Assembly: GCA_964344035.1 (NCBI GenBank)
Contig: CAYFLK010000006.1
Location: forward strand, 26,162-90,161
Source: an uncultured Pseudomonadota bacterium
GTDB lineage: Bacteria; SAR324; NAC60-12
Direction of reading: 5' to 3'
Length of the DNA: 64,000 nucleotides
A program made the position numbers and the translations under genes. Positions 5,827-53,143 of this stretch are shown here, one piece after another. The notes below the pieces were generated by a model, which saw only the letters and a list, made by a program, of their open reading frames with translations, was not told the DNA's origin and searched no databases. Each line of letters starts with the position of its first letter. The stretch's first letter is position 1.

Positions 5827-6810
5827 ATGAAAAAAAATAAGCCGACCACAAGTCGATGGCCGAAAAAGATAAGGTCCCTGCTTGTCTGTGCTTTCTGTTT
5901 TCTCGCGGGCTGTAATTCCATGTTCTACTATCCCAGTGAAAAAATCTTCTTTACTCCCGAAATGCTGGGTATCAACCATGAAAACGTTCGTTTCAGCAAC
6001 CGCAGCGGAAACTTGCTGCATGGCTGGTTCGTACCCTCAAGCATAACGCCCGCCAAGGGGACCCTGCTTTTTCTTCATGGAAACGCCCACAACATCAGCC
6101 ATTATTTCCTTTCGGTGCAGGGATTTCAGCATGCGGGATATCACCTGTTCACCTTCGACTACCAGGGCTTCGGGTATTCCCAGGGAGAGCCGTATCCGGC
6201 AGGGACCCTGGACGACGCGGAAGCGGCGCTGAGTTACCTGCTTGGCAGGGAAGACATGGACCCGGACCGTATCATAGTCTTTGGACAAAGCCTGGGGGGT
6301 ACGATCGCCTTAAACTGGATCGGTTCAAAAAAACCCGGGCATATTGCCGCCGTCATTTCCGAATCGGCTTTTTCTTCCTACCGCAAGATTGCCAGGGAAA
6401 AGATGAACCCCATCGGAATCCTGCGCTGGTTTCGTGAACCAATCACACGCTGGTTTGTGGATGACGAATTTTCTCCGGAACCGGTGGTCGCCGAAATCTC
6501 CCCCGTGCCGCTGCTGATTATACACGGGACAAGGGACCCGGTAGTCCCCTATGAACATGGTATGCGCCTGTATGCCGCAGCCCGGGAGCCGAAGGAATTT
6601 TGGACCATCATCGGCGGTGGACACACTGAGATGCTGGGCAGGTTCCGGACGCATTACTGGGATCGCCTGCTGAGCTACCTCGACAATGTTTTGCGGGAGG
6701 CATCTCAAGAAAATGACTTGTGGGCCGTGTCCCCGCCGGCAGACCCGTATCTTTCTCAACCGCACACCGGGCATCCGCGGGAAACGGGATTCCCCGGCTT
6801 GGTGTTTTAA
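5827..6810 (+). CDS. alpha/beta-hydrolase lipoprotein (dienelactone hydrolase / BAAT-like)
   Basis: Lipobox 'FLAGC'; nucleophile elbow 'GQSLGG'; start taken at MKKNK at 5827. Confidence 0.85.
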   Translation: MKKNKPTTSRWPKKIRSLLVCAFCFLAGCNSMFYYPSEKIFFTPEMLGINHENVRFSNRSGNLLHGWFVPSSITPAKGTLLFLHGNAHNISHYFLSVQGFQHAGYHLFTFDYQGFGYSQGEPYPAGTLDDAEAALSYLLGREDMDPDRIIVFGQSLGGTIALNWIGSKKPGHIAAVISESAFSSYRKIAREKMNPIGILRWFREPITRWFVDDEFSPEPVVAEISPVPLLIIHGTRDPVVPYEHGMRLYAAAREPKEFWTIIGGGHTEMLGRFRTHYWDRLLSYLDNVLREASQENDLWAVSPPADPYLSQPHTGHPRETGFPGLVF

Positions 6811-6885
6811 CCCTTGTGCTTCATTAAAGGCTTGAAAAACCGGGGGCATTCTTTTAATTTATAGGCTCCAGAACATTGAGCTTGT

Positions 6886-6961
6886 TCCCCAATAGCTCAG
6901 TTGGTAGAGCAAGTGGCTGTTAACCACTGGGTCGCTGGTTCGAGTCCGGCTTGGGGAGCCA
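6886..6961 (+). tRNA. tRNA-Asn (anticodon GTT), CCA encoded
   Basis: Acceptor stem TCCCCAA/TTGGGGA; D-arm AGCTCAGTTGGTAGAGC; anticodon loop CTGTTAA; T-arm GGTTCGAGTCC; 76 nt. Confidence 0.92.
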
Positions 6962-7001
6962 GAATTCACCCCGCCAACACCGGCGGGAAAAGTGAACGCG
7001 A

Positions 7002-7040
7002 GACCCCGTTGAATGACATTCTTCGGGGTCTTGACGTTTA
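7002..7040 (+). terminator. possible intrinsic terminator after tRNA-Asn
   Basis: Hairpin GACCCCG...CGGGGTC (7-bp stem) followed by TTGACGTTT, a weak T-run. Confidence 0.3.
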
Positions 7041-7136
7041 CAGCCCGCTCACACCACAAAGACTGCGGCCTTCTATTCCCCTGAAGTTCTGCCGCAATTC
7101 TCTCGCATCGTTGTATAATTAAAACGGATTTGGAGA

Positions 7137-8684
7137 ATGTCTCCCCTTAACATCCCGAACCTGGAATTATCTGCGCTCACCCTTGAAGAAAAGGTATGGC
7201 TGACGCGGGTGATGGCGGAAATCGTGGCGGGTAATGATGCAGTGAAATCCCGTTCACGCAAGGGGTTTGAGCAGACACTCGGCAGTTTTCAAAACCGCGA
7301 GCAGGCAGCGCATTTACTGGAAGCGCTGAACCAACGCCCCATGCCTCCGTGGCCCGCGATAAAGACTGATCGTCAGCGGGCGTTGACCCTTCTGTATCGC
7401 CTGGCAACAGTGATGGCGGCGGATCATGTGGTATCGCGCAGGCAGGTGAAATTGTTTCGGAAAGCCCTATCGGCCTTGGGCTTCTCCAAACTCGATCACC
7501 CCCTTCTGCTGGGTCACGTACAAAACATCATCGTTGCCGGAAAACCAAACGCGGCAATCCTCACTACTACTGATTTTGTAAGGATCACACTGCAGGATTT
7601 CTCCGACACCCATTGTGTTTTCAGCTTCCACCGTCCGCTGGTGCCCGGTGTGTTCATTTTGGTGCAGGTGCGTGCCCTCGCACGTACTGAAACATATCAT
7701 GCTCCCATCCATGCTACAGTTCGCTCGATATCAAAAGGGCCTTTTGAAAACGGGAGCTACCTCATCCATGCGGAATTTCAACAGCGCCTGGGATCCCGTC
7801 ACGGGCTGCGGGAGTTTTGGAATCCTGCACTTTCGAAACAGGACAGCGCCAAGGGATACGGGATTGTAGAACCAGGAGATGGGTCCCTGATTGGCCGGTA
7901 CGTCGGATGTCCGGCCTGCACCGAGCCCGGGCTGACGTTCTGGCATCTGCGTACGAACACTATGCACCGCGGTGAAAACCTGTTTGGGGTCCCGCACTAC
8001 CATGCTTCTTTTCCGGGGTACGATTTTTGCGATTTCAATCTGCTTCGGGTAACGGTTTGTCCGCGGTGTTTTTTTGCTTCAGCGCGGGAAAAGGATTTTC
8101 TCCAGTCCCCCGGAGAGAATGCGCATTTTGATGTGCACAGATTCAACAGGCACTGGGAATCACAGTTTAAGCGGTTGAAACATGAACTGCATAACTTTCC
8201 GCAATCGTTTGGCAAGGTGCATCGAAAACCGGAACACGCTGTCCAGGCCTATGAGATTGCCGTCGGCACGATGCGTACACTCAATCGTTTGCATGAGAAT
8301 GAGGAATTTTTGTGGGAAATTGTTAGGCTGCGCCTGATCCAGGCGGAAATGTCGATGCAACTGAAGCGGCGTGATGAGGCCCAGAAGCAATTGAAAGATG
8401 CGCTTGAACTGCTGAAAGCCGGGAACTCGAAATTCAGCGATGAACGAGAAATCCAGGTCCTGTTGTCAAAGTTCCTGCTGCACAACTATTTCCGGGAATC
8501 CGATGCTGCCTTGTCCTGTTATAAGCAATTGCGGAACCTGAAACCCAAGGCGAATACGGGGACGTTGTATTCGGTGATGCTACAGGACTCCTTGAAAAAA
8601 GCGCACTGGGTTAATTCCCACGGGAAGGATTTGAATCATGCGACGATGTCTGATTTCCACATCTCCGGTTTCACGGGTGATTAG
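7137..8684 (+). CDS. multidomain hypothetical protein with TerB-like N-domain, possible degenerate PilZ-like barrel and C-terminal DUF2225-like zinc ribbon plus helical domain
   Basis: N-terminal paired-helix motif '...LATVMAADHVVSRRQVKLFRKALSALGF' is TerB-like; 'CPAC...(N35)...CPRCFFASAREKDF' matches the DUF2225 zinc-ribbon pattern; GGAG RBS before the ATG. Confidence 0.65.
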   Translation: MSPLNIPNLELSALTLEEKVWLTRVMAEIVAGNDAVKSRSRKGFEQTLGSFQNREQAAHLLEALNQRPMPPWPAIKTDRQRALTLLYRLATVMAADHVVSRRQVKLFRKALSALGFSKLDHPLLLGHVQNIIVAGKPNAAILTTTDFVRITLQDFSDTHCVFSFHRPLVPGVFILVQVRALARTETYHAPIHATVRSISKGPFENGSYLIHAEFQQRLGSRHGLREFWNPALSKQDSAKGYGIVEPGDGSLIGRYVGCPACTEPGLTFWHLRTNTMHRGENLFGVPHYHASFPGYDFCDFNLLRVTVCPRCFFASAREKDFLQSPGENAHFDVHRFNRHWESQFKRLKHELHNFPQSFGKVHRKPEHAVQAYEIAVGTMRTLNRLHENEEFLWEIVRLRLIQAEMSMQLKRRDEAQKQLKDALELLKAGNSKFSDEREIQVLLSKFLLHNYFRESDAALSCYKQLRNLKPKANTGTLYSVMLQDSLKKAHWVNSHGKDLNHATMSDFHISGFTGD

Positions 8685-8714
8685 TAAAGGGGGTGGGAAA
8701 AGAGAAAAAGTTAT

Positions 8715-9221
8715 TCACCCGTCCAAGGAACATTGCAGGCGCTCATCGTTCCGCACAAGGTTCTTCAGCTTCCCAAGCAGCATGGTTGCGTCTTTGCCGA
8801 CAGGCCCACTCAATGAATGTATGAAGAGTCCCGAGTATTTTTCGCGCACCAGCCGGATGAAGCGAGGATGCTGAGCGGTTTCGCATCCCATCATGCCGGC
8901 CAGTGCATGCAGATGCACTCCTTTTCCACGGGCAGCTTCTTCGTCAAGCACAGTCCACTGGGATTCGATGAAGTGCCTGTGGAGCTGCGCGGTGTAATCC
9001 CAGTTTTTGCAGCCGGAAGTCCCGGATGTGCTGGCAAAAGCGAAAGTCGGTGAAAAAGTGATGTCCACCGACATCATGCCCGGGTCCTTGTGCGCAAAAC
9101 CCATGGCCCCGCCCCGGTGGCAAGCAAACAGGGGAGATCGCGCCGCAAGCAATAGGGAGAAAACAATCATCATCAGCCTAATGACGCTAGGCGCAATTAC
9201 ACCCGGTCTGAAATGATTCAT
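8715..9221 (-). CDS. small secreted protein, paralog 1 (TSGTSGCKNWD-motif family)
   Basis: Signal peptide 'MNHFRPGVIAPSVIRLMMIVFSLLLAA'; conserved 'KDPGMMSVDITFSP...TSGTSGCKNWD'; start re-picked at the internal M (the annotated ORF runs to 9281). Confidence 0.6.
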   Translation of the reverse strand: MNHFRPGVIAPSVIRLMMIVFSLLLAARSPLFACHRGGAMGFAHKDPGMMSVDITFSPTFAFASTSGTSGCKNWDYTAQLHRHFIESQWTVLDEEAARGKGVHLHALAGMMGCETAQHPRFIRLVREKYSGLFIHSLSGPVGKDATMLLGKLKNLVRNDERLQCSLDG

Positions 9222-9778
9222 GACAATCCGCAGGAAATATTCAACACCGGATCTTGTCTTATCCACTGTTTCAGATGCCACAGAATGGCAGATGGATCTT
9301 CGGACATTTGGGCGTATGCGGAAATTTCATTGAAGTGTCTGCGCAGCATCGCGTTGAACTCATGCTGGTTGGGCGGACTGCACGTCATCAGCCCGGCAAG
9401 AGCTTCCAAGCGAGGGCCTGTACCGCGCGCTGTCTCCAAAATTATGTTTTCCTTCTCCCGCTCCACAAACCGCATTCTCTCCATTTCCAGTCCGCGGGCG
9501 AAATCCCAGTTCTTGCAGCCGGAAGTACCCGATGTCGTTGCGCCGGAATAAACCGGTGAGAAGCTGATATCAACCACCGACATCACCGGATCTTTAGGCG
9601 TTGCCCCCAAAAAACCCTTGCCTGTACATTCCGCAAACAGGGATTCGGAATGCGTCAAGAAGGTCCCCAGTATTACTGAAAACAAAAAGACACGGCGCAG
9701 TCTCTTCTTCGATTGAACGCATCCAGAACGTTCCAGGAAAAAACGGGGAACTCCGGCTGCAAAAAAAGGTTCCAACAC
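9218..9778 (-). CDS. small secreted protein, paralog 2 (TSGTSGCKNWD-motif family)
   Basis: 'KDPVMSVVDISFSP...TSGTSGCKNWD' aligns with paralog 1; hydrophobic signal-like segment 'VFLFSVILGTFL'; start uncertain. Confidence 0.55.
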   Translation of the reverse strand: MLEPFFAAGVPRFFLERSGCVQSKKRLRRVFLFSVILGTFLTHSESLFAECTGKGFLGATPKDPVMSVVDISFSPVYSGATTSGTSGCKNWDFARGLEMERMRFVEREKENIILETARGTGPRLEALAGLMTCSPPNQHEFNAMLRRHFNEISAYAQMSEDPSAILWHLKQWIRQDPVLNISCGLS

Positions 9779-9919: not shown

Positions 9920-10210
9920 TTAGGCGGATCGAAGTTTTTCCGATTTTCGCAGCACTTGGGTTTTGATTGAATCTATTCCTTTGTTGAGGGCCTTGTACAA
10001 ATTTTTGTCTTCGGTCCTGCTGATCATTTGTTTGTTGCGATAACTGCAATTGATTCCAACATGATACTGGTTGTCATTCACCTTGTTCAACTTGACATGA
10101 AACGCGTGTTTGTTCTCGGTGATTTTCAATAATTCCTCGAACATCTCATGAACATGATCCGTAACCGCATCCGATTTGCGGATGTTATTAAAGGTGAGGT
10201 GAATGGACAT
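9920..10210 (-). CDS. hpf: ribosome hibernation promoting factor / sigma-54 modulation protein (short HPF)
   Basis: 'MSIHLTFNNI...HVGINC...KNLYKALNKGIDSIKTQVLRK', about 97 aa; the upstream part of the 173-aa ORF is not HPF-like. Confidence 0.85.
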   Translation of the reverse strand: MSIHLTFNNIRKSDAVTDHVHEMFEELLKITENKHAFHVKLNKVNDNQYHVGINCSYRNKQMISRTEDKNLYKALNKGIDSIKTQVLRKSEKLRSA

Positions 10211-10763
10211 AGCTTCCTTTGCTGGGGTTGATGGATTTCCTGATGAAAATAGGACATTGAGGACATCCTCAGGTGTTTTCTTAAACCCTGGGTTCAAGAA
10301 TTCCCTGCTATTTGGGAGGCGGTTCCTGTCCCGGTTCCTCCAGCGGTGTTTCACTGACTGCGCTGGGGGGTTCCGGAGTTTCCTGCTCCCTCGGAACAAA
10401 GAGAAACCATCCGGGTATGACAATGATGCAGTAGGAAACAATGCCGATGAGAGCCAGAATCAGATTACGCATATACCTCTTGTTGGAAAATTGGGCAGGC
10501 CGACCGGGCCTGCGCGTGGCTCCTGTTTGTACATAACAACCCCACGCGATTTGGTCAAGCCGGCAATTCTACGGAAAGGGTTTTTTTGATATTTTCCGGA
10601 TAAAAAACCCGGTGATGCCAGAATTATTCCCCGGACAGGATTCGGCTGCAACTAGTTTTGCTTTCCCGCCGGTCCGGAAAATGTGGAAACAACTTCTCGG
10701 CGTTGACATTGTTGTTGCATCAATAAATGATTTCCGGGGCAAAAAAACAATCCCGGAATTCTC

Positions 10764-11663
10764 TTGCTGTACACCTGTTCACCGGCGACTGAAGTGCGAT
10801 CCCCGACCCGTTTGGATTTTTTAGTGCTTTTCACCTTGGGAGGATTGTGGGGTTCGTCCTTTGCGGCAATCAAATTCGCATTACTTGGTGTGACGCCGCT
10901 AACAGTAATGACCTGCCGGATCCTGCTTGCCGGGTCCGCGCTGCTGCTGCTCAAGCTGCTGAGGGGCAATTCCTTCCCAAGGAATTTAAACACATGGCAT
11001 GCTATTTTCTGGATGGCGGTGACGGGCATCAACCTCCCTTTTCTGCTGGTACCGTGGGCAGAGCAGCAGATCGCCAGCAGTCTCGCGGCCATCCTCATGG
11101 CCTTCAATCCGATCATCACACTCATCCTGGCGCATTTTTTCAGCGATCATGAACCCTTTACAGCCCGGCATGGAGTCACGGTGCTGTGAGGATTTGCCGG
11201 GGTCGCGCTGCTGATGGGAGTGGACTCCTACACTTCATTCGGGAACAACCTGTGGCCGCAGCTAGCGGTCATTGCAGCCGGGACCGGGTACACCGTATCC
11301 GGGATCATCACTGTCAGGACCCGAGGCGTGTCCGCGGACACCCTGAGCGCCGTCACATTTATGGTCGCGGCCGTCATCGCCGTACCGACATGGATCATCA
11401 TCGATCAGCCGTGGACGATCGATTGGCGCCGGGAATCGTTCTGGGCCTTGATCTACCTCGGCATGGTCACCACCGCGTTGGCTTTTCTGCTGCGCTACTA
11501 CCTGATTATGCGCACCGGGGCGGTTTTTCTTTCCTATGTCGCATACCTGATCCCGATGGTGGGCATTATCCTCGGCGCGCTGATGCTCGGGGAAATGCTG
11601 AAATGGACTGCCTTTGTCGCGATTTTCCTGATTCTGTTCGGGGTTTACCTGGGCAGGAACTGA
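10764..11663 (+). pseudogene. DMT-superfamily (EamA/RhaT-like) transporter interrupted by an in-frame TGA at 11187-11189
   Basis: ORFs 10764-11189 and 11214-11663 share a frame; the junction reads '...HGVTVL*GFAGVALLMGVD', the typical EamA interdomain linker where a Trp (TGG) is expected. Confidence 0.6.
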
Positions 11664-14492: not shown

Positions 14493-17036
14493 TCAACGTT
14501 TCTGAAACTGCTTGACCTGGTCCAGTCCGCGCTGGATCTCGTTTTCTACCACCGATTCCGGAGAACCCATCGCCCTTCCCAGTTCTCTCAGCAGTGTCTG
14601 TTCCTGCGGATCAAAATCGCGGTCAACGGTGGCAATGTCGGTCAGTTCCCTGAGTATGCGGTTTTTGTCCTCGTCGGATAAACCGAATACATTTCCGGGC
14701 TCGATTTTGCTGCCTAACAGGATGGCTTCCTCAAGCTGCCGCACATGTTCAGGGTTTTCGAGAATGTGGATTGCGCCGTGAAGGTAGGTACGTTCATAAA
14801 GATCGATCCGTTCGTCTGCCATGATCATCTGGGTGATCGCTTTGGCATACCAGAATTTCTGATCCTCGTTTAAGTGGTCCATCAGCACCATGTTAAGTTG
14901 CTTGTCCGACTCACGGAACTGCGCTTCGCTTTCACGCAGGACTTTGATCGACTTCAGCGCCTTCTGTGCGCCGTCATTGCCGTCAACCGCCGCGGCACGG
15001 AACCAGTAGTAGGCCTCATCCACGTTTCTGGGCACGCCTTGGCCGTGGAAATTCATGATGCCAAGATTGTATTTCGCACGCGCGTTGCCCTTGATCGCCG
15101 ATTCAAGGAAAAGCCGGTAGGCTTCCATCGGTTCGCCTTTCTGTTTGGTAACCATCACCCCTTTGCGGAACAACTCGTCCGCATCGGTTTTTTCCATTTC
15201 CTCGAACTCCATCCCTTCTTTTAATCCGGCCGCCTCCGGTTTGCGCAGCACACCCAGAAAATGGGGCAGGTAGACATCATCCTCGATCGGCTGATCCGTG
15301 CGCGCCATAAACAGCAGCGTGTCTCCGGCAGCCACCAGGACATCGTTTCTCGGGTTGAGGAGCATCCTCCCGTTTTCCCCTCGGATCAAGGCAACGGGAA
15401 GATGTGATAGGGTTTTTTTCATGTGCACGATGGTATCAACCCATGGGCTGGCCTGCCATTTCGGACTGAGTTTCCGGGAAAACAGGCTTTCGCTGGACGG
15501 TTCTCCGGAGATCACACGTTCGATCAACACACCCGCGCCGGGGTGCACCGCGGTTTGTGACAGCACCGGTGCGGTCAGTTCATTGGCGCTGATGCTGAAG
15601 TCACAGCCGGCCCTTTCCAGCTGCTGGTCGAAGTCCGTTTCGCGGTAGCTGGCTATGGTAAAAATCGTTCCCCCGGTCGATTGCTCCATCTCCAGCACTG
15701 CCATCAGGGTCAGACCGTCGTGCAGGTGATCGACGAAGGCGACCTTCGCTTCAGTGGCCCGCGCGCGCGCGAACGATTCCGCGGAATATGAAACAGCCTG
15801 GATCCATTCAACGCGCAGGGATTCCGGAATCGAATCCAGCAGTTCAAGCTCGGAGACGACGACCACCTCTTCGTCATTTGAAAGGTAGGACAATTCGAGC
15901 AGCAGACGTTCGATGAAATACCGGTTGTCAGAGGAGATGACGATGTGTCCATGCGGGGCGATGTCTTCCGAGCCCGGAAATGCTATTGCGTCGTCAAGCC
16001 CGTCTCCTTCGGGACGGTCCGTGGCGGGCACCTGGATGAGGACCCTGTGTTTTTCAGTCAGCATCAGTTCCGATTCCGGATTGACCATCACCGAGGTGTC
16101 CTCCACCAGTCCCATCGGCAACAGGCCCTTGTGCCGTTTCATTTTTTCTATGTAATCAAGCCACGATTTGCCGATCACGTCTTCCGGGAGGGGATGGTTT
16201 TCCAGGGTCGGAGTGTCCGATTTCTGCACCCGCGAGCCATACTGGCTTTCTGACCCGCGCAGGATCAGTTGCAGGATCCACCACGGGGTGCCCTGTGATC
16301 GGTATGCGCTGACCATCATCGGCACATAAAGCGTGTATGGATCCATAGCGTGATCGCAGCCGACTTCTTCAAAATGCTGCCGTTTCTCCTGGCCGATGTA
16401 CTGCGCCATGGTGATCGCGTCTCCGATGGTGAGGCTTTCGATCTGCATCACCGTCATCAACGCCTGGCTGTCGTCTGAATATGAAACGTATGCGATGTAA
16501 GCGTGTTTCGCGGAAGCCTTGCGCAGGATATCGTTTCTGTAGCCGTTTCCGGAAACCCACGGTATTTTCTTGAACTGAGTATCGGTGAGCAGGGGATGTT
16601 CGGAAAACGGGCAGACCAGCGCAACACGGTTCTGCCGCACAAACTGACGGTTTTCCTCCAGGATTTCCCGGATGAATACCACGTCGTCTGAACAGATCAG
16701 CACGTGGTTCTGCATCTTCACTTCATCCAGCCCCCGCTCCTTCGTGCCGCGAAACGAGTAAAACAGATTGGAGACAAGGGAGATGATGATCGACATCTGT
16801 ACAATCCCGCCCGCCATCACCAGGAAGCTGAAGAGTTGGCCAGCCGGAGTGACCGGGGACATATCACCGTACCCTACAGTGGTAATCGTCACTACCGTCC
16901 ACCAGAGGCTACTGAACAGGTTGTTGAAAGCGCTTCCCTGGTCACCTGTGATCACGTATTCCAGGATCCAGATGCCCAGGGTTGAAACCAGCAGCAGCCC
17001 CGGCAGGGCGATCAGAAGAAGTAATCGGACCTTCAT
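14493..17036 (-). CDS. potassium channel fused to RCK/TrkA-like domains, Sel1 repeats and C-terminal TerB-like domain
   Basis: Pore helix and selectivity filter 'TITTVGYGD'; two transmembrane segments; about 500 aa of RCK-like region; Sel1-like 'YNLGIMNFHGQGVPRNVDEAYYWFRAAA'; C-terminal 'IMADERIDLYE...DIATVDRDFDPQEQTLLRELGRAMG' is TerB-like. Confidence 0.8.
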   Translation of the reverse strand: MKVRLLLLIALPGLLLVSTLGIWILEYVITGDQGSAFNNLFSSLWWTVVTITTVGYGDMSPVTPAGQLFSFLVMAGGIVQMSIIISLVSNLFYSFRGTKERGLDEVKMQNHVLICSDDVVFIREILEENRQFVRQNRVALVCPFSEHPLLTDTQFKKIPWVSGNGYRNDILRKASAKHAYIAYVSYSDDSQALMTVMQIESLTIGDAITMAQYIGQEKRQHFEEVGCDHAMDPYTLYVPMMVSAYRSQGTPWWILQLILRGSESQYGSRVQKSDTPTLENHPLPEDVIGKSWLDYIEKMKRHKGLLPMGLVEDTSVMVNPESELMLTEKHRVLIQVPATDRPEGDGLDDAIAFPGSEDIAPHGHIVISSDNRYFIERLLLELSYLSNDEEVVVVSELELLDSIPESLRVEWIQAVSYSAESFARARATEAKVAFVDHLHDGLTLMAVLEMEQSTGGTIFTIASYRETDFDQQLERAGCDFSISANELTAPVLSQTAVHPGAGVLIERVISGEPSSESLFSRKLSPKWQASPWVDTIVHMKKTLSHLPVALIRGENGRMLLNPRNDVLVAAGDTLLFMARTDQPIEDDVYLPHFLGVLRKPEAAGLKEGMEFEEMEKTDADELFRKGVMVTKQKGEPMEAYRLFLESAIKGNARAKYNLGIMNFHGQGVPRNVDEAYYWFRAAAVDGNDGAQKALKSIKVLRESEAQFRESDKQLNMVLMDHLNEDQKFWYAKAITQMIMADERIDLYERTYLHGAIHILENPEHVRQLEEAILLGSKIEPGNVFGLSDEDKNRILRELTDIATVDRDFDPQEQTLLRELGRAMGSPESVVENEIQRGLDQVKQFQKR

Positions 17037-19964: not shown

Positions 19965-20363
19965 TCAGTAATGCAAAGGGAGTGACAAGCGATCCAGTCC
20001 TTCAATAGCTTCGTAATCTCGGTCCAGGGTAAACAGGGTTAGATTTCGATTCAGACAGACAGTAGCGATCAGAGCATCTGTAGCCGATAGGGTCCGGCCG
20101 TTTTGTCGCAAGTCGTTCATAAGATTTCCCGCGCATTGCCAGTCTTTTCGCTCAATGGTGACCCAGCGTAGGGCGCCGAGCAAGAGCATAAACTCATCAC
20201 GATCATGCTGGCGCACAACGCGCAATAGTTCCATTTCCACAACACCGCACAGTAACACCTGATCCGCGGCAATGAGAGAATCCAGTAACATTGCGTGTTT
20301 GCTCGTTCCTTGTCTGAAGTATTCTATCCAGACGGATGTATCCACCAACACTTCATCATTCAT
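19965..20363 (-). CDS. vapC: type II toxin VapC (PIN-domain ribonuclease)
   Basis: 'LVDTSVWIEYF...' PIN N-terminus with acidic residues; overlaps the upstream antitoxin by 8 nt. Confidence 0.8.
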   Translation of the reverse strand: MNDEVLVDTSVWIEYFRQGTSKHAMLLDSLIAADQVLLCGVVEMELLRVVRQHDRDEFMLLLGALRWVTIERKDWQCAGNLMNDLRQNGRTLSATDALIATVCLNRNLTLFTLDRDYEAIEGLDRLSLPLHY

Positions 20364-20571
20364 GAGAGGCTTCTTCGATCTCAAGACTTCTCAATTCCCG
20401 AAGATTCCCCTCCCATTCCAGTCTCCCCCGATATTCTCTCAATCTTTGCAGTTTTCGTAGCCTCACCCAATCCTTCAGGGCTTGATTGACTGCTTCTGTT
20501 TTGGTGTGAGAGGTGGTTGCATGCATGACTTCATGCATCACATTATCGCTAACATTAATTGTGATTCTCAT
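20356..20571 (-). CDS. vapB: type II antitoxin VapB-family (DUF2191 / ribbon-helix-helix-like)
   Basis: 'MRITINVSDNVMHEVMHATTSHTKTEAVNQALKDWVRLRK', a typical VapB antitoxin N-terminus. Confidence 0.75.
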   Translation of the reverse strand: MRITINVSDNVMHEVMHATTSHTKTEAVNQALKDWVRLRKLQRLREYRGRLEWEGNLRELRSLEIEEASHE

Positions 20572-50695: not shown

Positions 50696-51565
50696 ATGAC
50701 CAGGAACAACACGGACAAGATGGGGACCATCATCGGGCTTATTTCGGGGGCCGTCTTCATCCTTTTCGGTATCCTTTGGCCGATTGAATACTCCAACCTG
50801 GCGCTGATCCTTGGAGACGGGTATGAATCGGACAACCCACAACTGCAGATGATGTTGAAAGTCGCCCGCTTCTTTGACGTCAAATCCGTGTTTATCGTCA
50901 TCGGGGGGACGTTTTCGGCAACCTTCATCGCCTTTCCCTACAAAAAAACCCTGCGCAGTTTCCGCAGCATGGGCAAGGTCCTCTCCGCGGATCATTCCGA
51001 AATCGAGGCGGAAGACGTCTATGAACAGGCGCGAACGATAGGTGAAAAGCGTTTTCATGGCCGGCGTTTGACCAATGAGGACCTGAACAGCCTCACCAAC
51101 CCCTTCATGCGCCGCTGGATTGAAGGGCTGATCGTGCGGGAACAGGTCCCGGAAGAAATGCTCAATGAAATCATCCGCTCGGAAATCGAGATGTATGAAC
51201 ACCGCGCGGATGAAGAGATTGAAATAATAGAGTTCATGAGCACAGCCGCCCCGGCGTTCGGGATGATGGGGACAATCGTCGGGCTGGTGCTGATGCTGGC
51301 GGAAACAGGCAGCATCCGCGCCGTGATGCAGTCAATGTCGATTGCGATGCTCACCACGCTGTATGGAGTGATAATCGCTAATTTGATCCTGCAGCCGCTG
51401 GCCTCAAAGAGAAAACAACTGAAGGAATCGAACAGGGTGCTGATGGAAATGATCCGCGAAAGCGTCCAGTGCATTGCGCGACGCGACGCGCCTTACGCGA
51501 TGCTGCAGGAACTGTCACTGTTCCTGCCCGCAAAGCGGCTCGATTTCGACCAACAATACCAATAA
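50696..51565 (+). CDS. MotA/PomA-like proton-channel stator protein
   Basis: Four transmembrane segments with a cytoplasmic acidic loop; 'AAPAFGMMGTIVGLV' matches the MotA TM3 'LPAFGIVAAVMG'. Confidence 0.8.
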   Translation: MTRNNTDKMGTIIGLISGAVFILFGILWPIEYSNLALILGDGYESDNPQLQMMLKVARFFDVKSVFIVIGGTFSATFIAFPYKKTLRSFRSMGKVLSADHSEIEAEDVYEQARTIGEKRFHGRRLTNEDLNSLTNPFMRRWIEGLIVREQVPEEMLNEIIRSEIEMYEHRADEEIEIIEFMSTAAPAFGMMGTIVGLVLMLAETGSIRAVMQSMSIAMLTTLYGVIIANLILQPLASKRKQLKESNRVLMEMIRESVQCIARRDAPYAMLQELSLFLPAKRLDFDQQYQ

Positions 51566-51574
51566 TTCCGGCTG

Positions 51575-53143
51575 ATGCTGGGGCTGAAAAAAAAGAAGGC
51601 CAGGGAAGTACGCTGGTTGATCACGTTTGCCGATCTGATCACCCTGCTGTTCTGTTTTTTTGTTTACCTGTCGCTGTTCAGCAAACCAAGCGTCAGCCTG
51701 CAAACAAGGTTCAGGATCACCGAACAGGCCCTGCTGGTTTTGAAGGAAGCCCTGCCAGCATCCGTGATCTCCGGAATGCAGTCGCTGAGCGGCCTTATCT
51801 TTAACGGAGAGCAGGTTTTTTATGAGGGAGTTGAATCCTGGATCGGCAAGGACGACTCGGCAAAATTCCGCAGCCAAATCGTGCTGGAAAGCATCGCGGA
51901 TGATGTGGTGGATGAATCCGGGCGGGTGGCATGGGTGGAAGTCATCCTCAGCGAACCGGTGCAGGAAGACCTGAAGGTCCCCCTGTTTTTCAGCGGGATG
52001 GCGCGCAGGGGTCCGGATAACCAGGAATTGTGCACTGATGAGGGGTTGACCCGCGCTGACGAAAGCACACAGGGGTTCGATTATTTGCTTTCCCGGGAAT
52101 CGATTTCCATCGAAAGCGGTGAGACAACCGGTAGGATACCGATCTGCATCATTGACGATGAACTTTACGAGGGGACCGAATCCATCCGCGTCCAGATCGG
52201 AAACGTCCGCGGCAACGTCGAGCGCGGAACCATCATTTCGAAAAACGTACTCATTCATGACAATGAACCGCCGCCGAGGGCGAGTTTCAATATTGATCGC
52301 CGCGATATTTTCAAAGGGATCGTCAGCCTCACCGTCCAACTCGACCGCGTAAGCGGCACCACCACCGAGATCCCTGTTTCATTCAAAGGTACCGCATACG
52401 AGGGCGTTGATTTCCGCCTGATCGACCCCCCGGTGATCAGGATATTTCCCTACACGGAAAAAGGCTCGATCCAGCTTGAGATCATGCAGGATGAAGTGCC
52501 TCTCTACGCAACGCGCACCTTGCTTGTCGAAATGAACGAAAAGGTCATGCGCAACGTGCGGAGCGGGGGAGTTTCCCGCCAGGTGAACTCCATAATCGGC
52601 GCGCTAGAGATGAAAGACTGCAGCGGCATCCACCGTTTTTTAAAGGAAAACCACGGGGAATTTGCCGCGTTTGAACTGAATGCGAGCAAATCCCGCTGCA
52701 TCCTCATTCTGCCTTCCGAGTTCCTTTTCAAAAGCGGTTCCGCCGACCTCAAACCGGAAAACCTGCGGCGTTTGAAAAAATTCCTCGGAGAAATCCGGGA
52801 CCGTTACGAACTGGAAGGAGACGCGATCCGGGTGGAAGGTCACACCGATGACGTGCCGCTAGGGAAGCGCGCGGAATACCGGAACAACTGGGAACTTTCA
52901 GTCGCGCGGGCCACAAACATCGGGGTGTTCATGATGGAAAAAATCGGCTATGTTCCCGAACTCCTATCCATTTCCGGATATGCTGACACGCGCCCGCGTG
53001 TTTCGTACCGGGACTCGGAAGGACGCCGGAAAGACCGCAAGATGTTGCGGGAAGCACGCAGTGCGAACAGGCGCGTGGAGATTATTTTCACCCGACCCCC
53101 TCAGAAGGAGCGAACCCGCCGTTTTTTCCCTGACACGGAATGA
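51575..53143 (+). CDS. MotB-like protein with two Calx-beta-like periplasmic domains and C-terminal OmpA/MotB peptidoglycan-binding domain
   Basis: 'WLITFADLITLLFCFF' MotB plug/transmembrane segment with conserved Asp; 'IIDDELYEGTESIRVQIGNVRGNVERG' Calx-beta motif; OmpA-like C-terminus 'WELSVARATNI...ANRRVEI'. Confidence 0.75.
   Translation: MLGLKKKKAREVRWLITFADLITLLFCFFVYLSLFSKPSVSLQTRFRITEQALLVLKEALPASVISGMQSLSGLIFNGEQVFYEGVESWIGKDDSAKFRSQIVLESIADDVVDESGRVAWVEVILSEPVQEDLKVPLFFSGMARRGPDNQELCTDEGLTRADESTQGFDYLLSRESISIESGETTGRIPICIIDDELYEGTESIRVQIGNVRGNVERGTIISKNVLIHDNEPPPRASFNIDRRDIFKGIVSLTVQLDRVSGTTTEIPVSFKGTAYEGVDFRLIDPPVIRIFPYTEKGSIQLEIMQDEVPLYATRTLLVEMNEKVMRNVRSGGVSRQVNSIIGALEMKDCSGIHRFLKENHGEFAAFELNASKSRCILILPSEFLFKSGSADLKPENLRRLKKFLGEIRDRYELEGDAIRVEGHTDDVPLGKRAEYRNNWELSVARATNIGVFMMEKIGYVPELLSISGYADTRPRVSYRDSEGRRKDRKMLREARSANRRVEIIFTRPPQKERTRRFFPDTE

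Follow-up and report, generated by a model that had tools for sequence, protein, structure and literature searches.

A 64,000-nucleotide stretch from a bacterium of the SAR324 lineage (contig CAYFLK010000006.1 of assembly GCA_964344035.1, hereafter the window) carries a gene whose 515-residue product, the query of this analysis, joins a TerB-like domain, a PilZ-type barrel and a DUF2225 module. With a probability of roughly 55%, we read this protein as a soluble three-module signalling adaptor that does not bind a ligand itself, is encoded by a resident gene, and has its likeliest partner in the flagellar or chemotaxis machinery. The parts of the gene are given below; here and throughout, family counts of motifs and Pfam matches refer to a set of 24 members with the same three-domain architecture.

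7137..8684, plus strand: TerB-degenerate PilZ-DUF2225 open reading frame (ORF), 515 residues, ATG start, complete, from a program-made ORF list
7164..7538, plus strand: TerB-like six-helix domain, residues ~10-134
7545..7835, plus strand: six-stranded beta barrel of PilZ type that ends in short helices, residues ~137-233
7884..8636, plus strand: DUF2225 module, residues ~250-500, predicted as a zinc ribbon in a small beta sheet packed on a TPR-like helical solenoid
7908..7919, plus strand: first zinc knuckle, C258-P-A-C261, with C258 and C261 invariant in 24/24 members
8058..8069, plus strand: second zinc knuckle, C308-P-R-C311, with C308 and C311 invariant in 24/24 members

The ORF is a real gene, because the identical 515-residue protein has been found on eight metagenomic contigs (several samples of one project) and because full-length homologues exist, one of which (P0002) shares 34% identity with the query (E = 4e-94). 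A word-indexed homologue search has yielded four to six proteins per run, and the view of the family rests instead on a profile search run exhaustively against 1.84 billion cluster representatives, in which 367 relatives reach E ≤ 1e-3 and 81 of them E ≤ 1e-30. Genome matches of the family come almost entirely from metagenome-assembled genomes of the SAR324 cluster, and all named relatives are labelled either "hypothetical" or "DUF2225 domain-containing". The domain assignments for the query are drawn from these homologues and from profile-profile and fold comparison, not from its own Pfam scores. The AlphaFold model of the full-length protein (predicted local distance difference test, pLDDT, 84.6) agrees with the three-part anatomy proposed in an earlier reading of the bare sequence (hereafter the original prediction), in that residues 16-133 comprise six helices and residues 138-214 six strands with short helices after them, ahead of a small beta-rich stretch (242-291) and helical repeats (333-498).

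Of all parts of the query, the DUF2225 module has the most strongly conserved motifs. In 100 DUF2225-module sequences, C308 has been found to be invariant and C258, P309 and C311 nearly so. The query alone reaches 18.8 bits against DUF2225 (PF09986; E = 0.0015, residues 295-429) and stays below the gathering cut-off of 21, which its homologues P0002 (29.2 bits), P0004 (26.2 bits) and P0003 (21.6 bits) exceed; a Pfam match at E ≤ 0.01 has been obtained for 14 of the 24 members. The query shows the two CxxC knuckles followed by TPR-like repeats and is homologous to bona fide DUF2225 proteins. When modelled alone, the C-terminal 270 residues have given a pLDDT of 94.9 and a predicted template modelling score (pTM) of 0.92, with a beta/zinc-ribbon unit followed by the helical solenoid, a fold for which no counterpart has been found among solved structures. 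The TPR-like solenoid suggests a role in protein binding. The C-terminal zinc ribbon with helical repeats that had been assigned to DUF2225 is therefore borne out by the Pfam scores of the homologues, the invariant cysteines and the model. Of the proposed CPxC-N35-CPxC pattern, the two knuckles (CPAC at 258-261, CPRC at 308-311) stand, and the spacer has to be corrected from 35 to 46 residues.

At the other end of the protein, the TerB-like domain is less well preserved. The N-terminal 137 residues of the query score 14 bits against Pfam TerB (PF05099, E = 0.064), below the gathering cut-off of 24.4; the same profile detects 22 of the 24 members at E ≤ 0.01 (best 4.4e-10), and the family profile matches 2h5n (E = 1.6e-3) and 2ou3 (E = 0.078), both of them TerB-like structures. 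The query N-terminus adopts the TerB-like helical fold in the model, and the suggested N-terminal TerB-like domain is hence supported by relatives, family profile and fold, with the query itself below threshold. Together with the DUF2225 matches, profile support for both domains is present at the level of the family. The family consensus holds two acidic motifs, D33-G34-x-x-D37-x-x-E40 and D96-x6-E103, which have been proposed as metal ligands. The query reads N33, D34, K37 and S40 in the first, so that all four conserved positions are replaced, and keeps D96 in the second with Q103 instead of glutamate. It does not possess the paired acidic motif and is the sole member of the 24 without motif 1, which has likewise been lost in an ortholog of its own subclade (L021). 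Within this subclade, conservation is lowest in the TerB domain (20-28% identity).

The middle domain has been recognised by homology and fold. Pfam PilZ (PF07238) matches neither the query nor any of the 24 three-domain members, and an hhalign comparison pairs the middle domain of the three-domain members with the PilZ domain of their two-domain paralogues at a probability of 99.8% (E = 1e-28). In a Foldseek search of the PDB, the 15 best matches have all been PilZ proteins. The domain combines the six strands and C-terminal helix of a PilZ domain with homology to PilZ domains. No RxxxR motif has been found in the 40 residues ahead of the barrel, neither in the query nor in the other members (absent in 24/24), and the (D/N)xSxxG site reads D154-F-S-D-T-H159 in the query, with histidine replacing glycine; the columns of this site are not conserved across the three-domain family. 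The degenerate PilZ-like barrel lacking RxxxR, raised in the original prediction as a possibility, has been confirmed on all these counts. In the query's subclade, the barrel is the most conserved domain (31-45% identity, as compared with ~35% for the DUF2225 module). Because it is the best-conserved domain there and yet lacks RxxxR, the barrel is probably retained for something other than canonical cyclic di-GMP (c-di-GMP) binding. In contrast, the N-terminal domain found in the two-domain paralogues (~395 residues) passes Pfam PilZ with up to 41.9 bits and carries both RxxxR and DxSxxG, and these proteins are for that reason probable c-di-GMP receptors.

The query is one variant of a larger construction kit. 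Local hidden Markov models of the three modules have been run on the 153 best cluster representatives, with the following outcome.

27/153 representatives: TerB-PilZlike-DUF2225
27/153 representatives: TerB-TerB-DUF2225
18/153 representatives: PilZ-DUF2225
10/153 representatives: TerB-DUF2225
4/153 representatives: TerB-PilZ without DUF2225
65/153 representatives: DUF2225 module alone detected
2/153 representatives: none of these classes (a duplicated DUF2225 module in one, the barrel alone in the other)

TerB-PilZlike-DUF2225 is a recurrent architecture of which the query is a derived member. The combination had been called uncharacterised, which holds insofar as the literature search has found no functional study of it; it is a repeated solution, not a one-off. 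Among the 65 representatives in which only the module was detected, 38 have leaders of 130-250 residues, in which Pfam finds REC (27), cNMP-binding (4) and CheX (3) domains; the three CheX-DUF2225 fusions score 75 bits for CheX. Single examples are hemerythrin-REC-DUF2225, cNMP-DUF2225 and methyltransferase-TerB-PilZ. The N-terminal partners of DUF2225 are thus swapped among REC, canonical PilZ, cNMP-binding, CheX, hemerythrin-REC and one or two TerB domains. Because DUF2225 is the constant C-terminus behind interchangeable sensory and receiver domains, we infer on good grounds that it acts as an output module, either effector or partner-binding, with the N-terminal domains as inputs. The TerB-degenerate-PilZ pair is found without DUF2225 as well and also fused to methyltransferases. 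SAM-dependent methyltransferases of different families furthermore stand beside family members in three independent contexts (PrmA at L006 6991..7875, Methyltransf_23 at L017 1464..2123 and Methyltransf_3 at L043 7459..7992), and P0117 fuses one to TerB-PilZ; these links recall the PilZ protein MapZ, which binds CheR1 (PDB 5xly).

What this output may act upon is indicated by one phenotype and a few gene neighbourhoods. Inactivation of LEPBIa0550, a DUF2225 family protein of Leptospira biflexa, is reported to reduce spreading in soft agar with normal growth and shape, and its family to be absent from non-spiral spirochaetes (2025 preprint, PMC12236494). This motility defect is the only phenotype found in the literature for a family that is otherwise uncharacterised. 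Among the relatives' loci, one CheX-DUF2225 gene is directly preceded by CheZ (L039 5099..7342), and motA, motB, an O-methyltransferase gene (Methyltransf_3) and TerB-TerB-DUF2225 follow each other on one strand (L043 5770..9713, also in L044), with a gap of 8 nt before the TerB-TerB-DUF2225 gene, the isoleucyl-tRNA synthetase gene after it, and flaG upstream on the other strand. In a further locus (L040 6480..8977), a stand-alone PilZ gene and an Fe-S protein gene are found directly upstream of REC-DUF2225, with genes for a GGDEF protein and a Ser/Thr kinase divergent from them. A MotA/MotB pair is, moreover, encoded in the window itself. The motility link is nevertheless tentative, and the odds are against it, because most neighbourhoods consist of unrelated housekeeping genes. 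It is doubtful, though conceivable, that DUF2225 is a widespread and so far unrecognised output domain that couples REC, PilZ/cNMP and CheX inputs to the flagellar motor or chemotaxis, for which the TerB-degenerate-PilZ pair would be a novel input cassette, either ligand-independent or non-canonical.

For the query itself, the absence of RxxxR (24/24) and the loss of its own TerB acidic motifs lead to the protein-contact adaptor. C258, C261, C308 and C311 are predicted to form a zinc ribbon packed against the TPR-like solenoid, and the state of the input domains would gate the access of a protein partner to this zinc-ribbon/TPR surface. The partner would most probably come from the flagellar or chemotaxis machinery, and the protein would most likely work through protein-protein contacts, in the way of non-binding PilZ adaptors, instead of through c-di-GMP or metal binding. 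Several observations weigh against this reading. The query alone falls below the Pfam cut-offs for all three domains, and the pTM of its full-length model is 0.58, which leaves the mutual orientation of the domains uncertain. On sequence alone, a non-canonical site for c-di-GMP or a metal may still exist. LEPBIa0550 is a distant member, likened to the query by family membership and not by alignment. A motility-type context has been found in 2 of ~12 independent neighbourhoods, and most family members, the query included, sit among unrelated housekeeping genes. Finally, no binding partner or activity has been demonstrated for DUF2225 anywhere.

The surroundings of the gene in the window are formed by the following features.

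6886..6961, plus strand: tRNA-Asn(GTT), found by ARAGORN and by Rfam (tRNA, 68 bits), the sole tRNA in the 64 kb
8715..9281 and 9218..9778, minus strand: two tandem DUF3015 genes for Cys-rich proteins with probable signal peptides
9920..10441, minus strand: gene of the ribosome hibernation factor HPF (Ribosomal_S30AE), convergent to the query gene
14493..17036, minus strand: K+-channel-like protein of 847 residues with Ion_trans_2, TrkA_N/RCK, Castor_Poll_mid and Sel1 domains and a C-terminal TerB
50696..51565 and 51575..53143, plus strand: MotA/MotB stator-like pair, ~42 kb from the query gene

The query gene ends a run of plus-strand genes and is convergent with the two DUF3015 genes and HPF. 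Its start codon lies exactly 175 nt from the tRNA-Asn, so that ORF and tRNA are both present as originally described. From this proximity to the only tRNA of the window, an integration hotspot had been suggested, and the gene might on that account be carried by a mobile element or defence island that had inserted at tRNA-Asn. This explanation is effectively refuted. The original prediction had itself noted that no integrase is present, and indeed neither integrase nor recombinase is called in the annotated 18 kb around the query gene; no second copy of the tRNA 3' end exists in the 64 kb, and the content of guanine plus cytosine is flat at 0.51-0.55, without a shift. The arrangement of the query gene followed by both DUF3015 genes and HPF is kept in two other lineages (L005/L020 and L021-23/29), making three in all, with orthologs ~34% identical, and the ORF is intact in the relatives that share this flank. 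A tRNA upstream of the gene has been found in 0 of 20 scanned loci of relatives; the relatives keep the gene beside DUF3015 and HPF with no tRNA ahead of it. Their loci contain a single tRNA, a tRNA-Arg downstream of a stand-alone DUF2225 gene of 253 residues (L036). The marks of a tRNA-integrated genomic island (integrase, 3'-end repeat, atypical composition, variable presence) are hence missing; the query gene is a resident chromosomal gene and no tRNA-linked island cargo, and the tRNA-Asn is its neighbour by coincidence, with no functional tie to the ORF. Beyond the lineage-specific DUF3015-HPF synteny, a search for a neighbour conserved throughout has found none. Proteins of similar size with signal peptides are encoded downstream of the gene in L006 and L015 and have proved not to be homologous.

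The zinc ribbon of DUF2225 could alternatively bind nucleic acid or RNA polymerase, which would make the query a regulator of transcription or translation and not a motility adaptor. Four-Cys zinc ribbons often act in this way, REC-X proteins are often transcription factors, HPF, albeit transcribed convergently, is a neighbour kept in three lineages, and the RNA polymerase II subunit zinc ribbon 1qyp comes up as a weak profile match; that match is not significant, however (E = 0.31), no DNA-binding domain or helix-turn-helix has been detected, the solenoid suggests binding of proteins, and the links to CheX, CheZ and motAB point elsewhere. We consider this role unlikely. A genuine c-di-GMP receptor, in which the barrel, perhaps with the preceding TerB helix, switches the DUF2225 output as in YcgR/MotI, appears rather improbable. 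The PilZ fold is there, it is conserved within the subclade, and the two-domain paralogues carry the canonical motifs and pass Pfam PilZ, but RxxxR is missing from every three-domain member, the site of the second motif, DFSDTH in the query, is not conserved in the family, Pfam PilZ recognises 0/24, and PilZ domains that do not bind the ligand are known, as in Xanthomonas XAC1133 (bioRxiv 10.1101/814665). More improbable still is a metal- or tellurite-type stress protein that serves mainly, through its TerB domain, to chelate a metal ion or to sense membrane stress. TerB homology, the acidic motifs of the family consensus and the intact-motif TerB on the K+ channel of the same window speak for it; against it, motif 1 is gone entirely in the query and motif 2 is without its glutamate, the L021 ortholog has lost motif 1 too, no ter operon genes lie nearby, and what the TerB domain does is itself undefined (PMC11709261). 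The non-binding adaptor is what we retain.

Several further features of the window and of related loci have been noted. The TerB domain of the channel protein is a second TerB module in the window; its Pfam score is 25.6 bits, the TerB model built for the family recognises it at E = 3.9e-20 (residues 738-851), and its acidic motifs are intact. The MotB protein of the window, unusually long (522 residues), has its plug and its OmpA domain separated by a Calx-beta insert and is followed by a protein of 473 residues without Pfam match. Right after the tRNA, two GC-rich hairpins occur on the plus strand at 6962..7040 (CCCGCC-aaca-cc-GGCGGG and GACCCCG...CGGGGTC), with no T-tract. A TATAAT box lies at 7114-7119 upstream of the ORF, despite which a consensus scan has reported no sigma-70-like promoter, and an Rfam scan of 6600-9000 has found neither a riboswitch nor any other family besides the tRNA. 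In L006 (4156..5547; SAR324 JCVI-SC AAA005 group), the ortholog lies three genes downstream of asparaginyl-tRNA synthetase, and the parallel to the tRNA-Asn of the window is probably a coincidence. On the plus strand, two adjacent ORFs of 141 and 149 residues (10764..11189 and 11214..11663) hold one EamA domain each and could be a split or frameshifted EamA transporter with ten transmembrane segments, or a genuine pair of half-size genes. A VapB antitoxin/PIN-domain toxin pair is located amid housekeeping genes at ~19965..20571 on the minus strand (L019 15778..16384).

DUF2225 is broadly distributed and has almost no literature, and the locus has led to a census that places it C-terminal to classic input modules. 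Its position behind REC, PilZ, cNMP-binding, CheX and TerB domains is typical of an effector domain. Were the motility link true, response-regulator and c-di-GMP-effector outputs would gain a new class, and the Leptospira motility factor could be approached with a concrete hypothesis. The query provides a natural "ligand-blind" comparison, as both of its sensor-like domains are without the canonical ligand residues, and is not remarkable in itself; the family-level picture of a swappable DUF2225 output domain is the more interesting one.

Among known systems, the query has an N-terminal helical TerB-repeat domain in common with KP-TerB, PG1108 (2h5n), COG3793 (2ou3) and the TerB-like domain of DjlA. 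The paired acidic motifs, which the family consensus retains, are lost in the query itself, and its gene has no ter operon context. Its TerB is one module within a signalling protein, comparable to the case of DjlA, in which the domain likewise has no defined role (PMC11709261). DUF2225 (PF09986) proteins are typically stand-alone and of ~230 residues; the query shares their two CxxC knuckles and helical repeats over its C-terminal 250 residues and has two additional domains in front. The PilZ-DUF2225 paralogues of SAR324 and other marine metagenomes (P0003, P0026, P0031, P0033) can be aligned with query residues ~140-510 and keep RxxxR and DxSxxG, whereas the query has neither and has a TerB domain added. 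YcgR, MotI/DgrA and PlzA/PlzD are c-di-GMP receptors that act on the flagellar motor. The query differs from them in that the c-di-GMP-binding motifs and a PilZN/YcgR_N domain are absent, its output is the zinc-ribbon/TPR module, and contact with the motor is hypothetical. A PilZ fold without binding motifs is also found in Xanthomonas XAC1133 and Pseudomonas PA2960, presumed protein-protein adaptors (bioRxiv 10.1101/814665), which are small, stand-alone and linked to type IV pili, whereas the query barrel sits between TerB and DUF2225. The REC-, cNMP- and CheX-DUF2225 proteins (P0089, P0127, P0148 and others) differ from the query in their inputs, which are of response-regulator, cyclic-nucleotide and chemotaxis-phosphatase type, and share with it the C-terminal module, which the query-family profile matches at E = 1e-15 to 1e-28.

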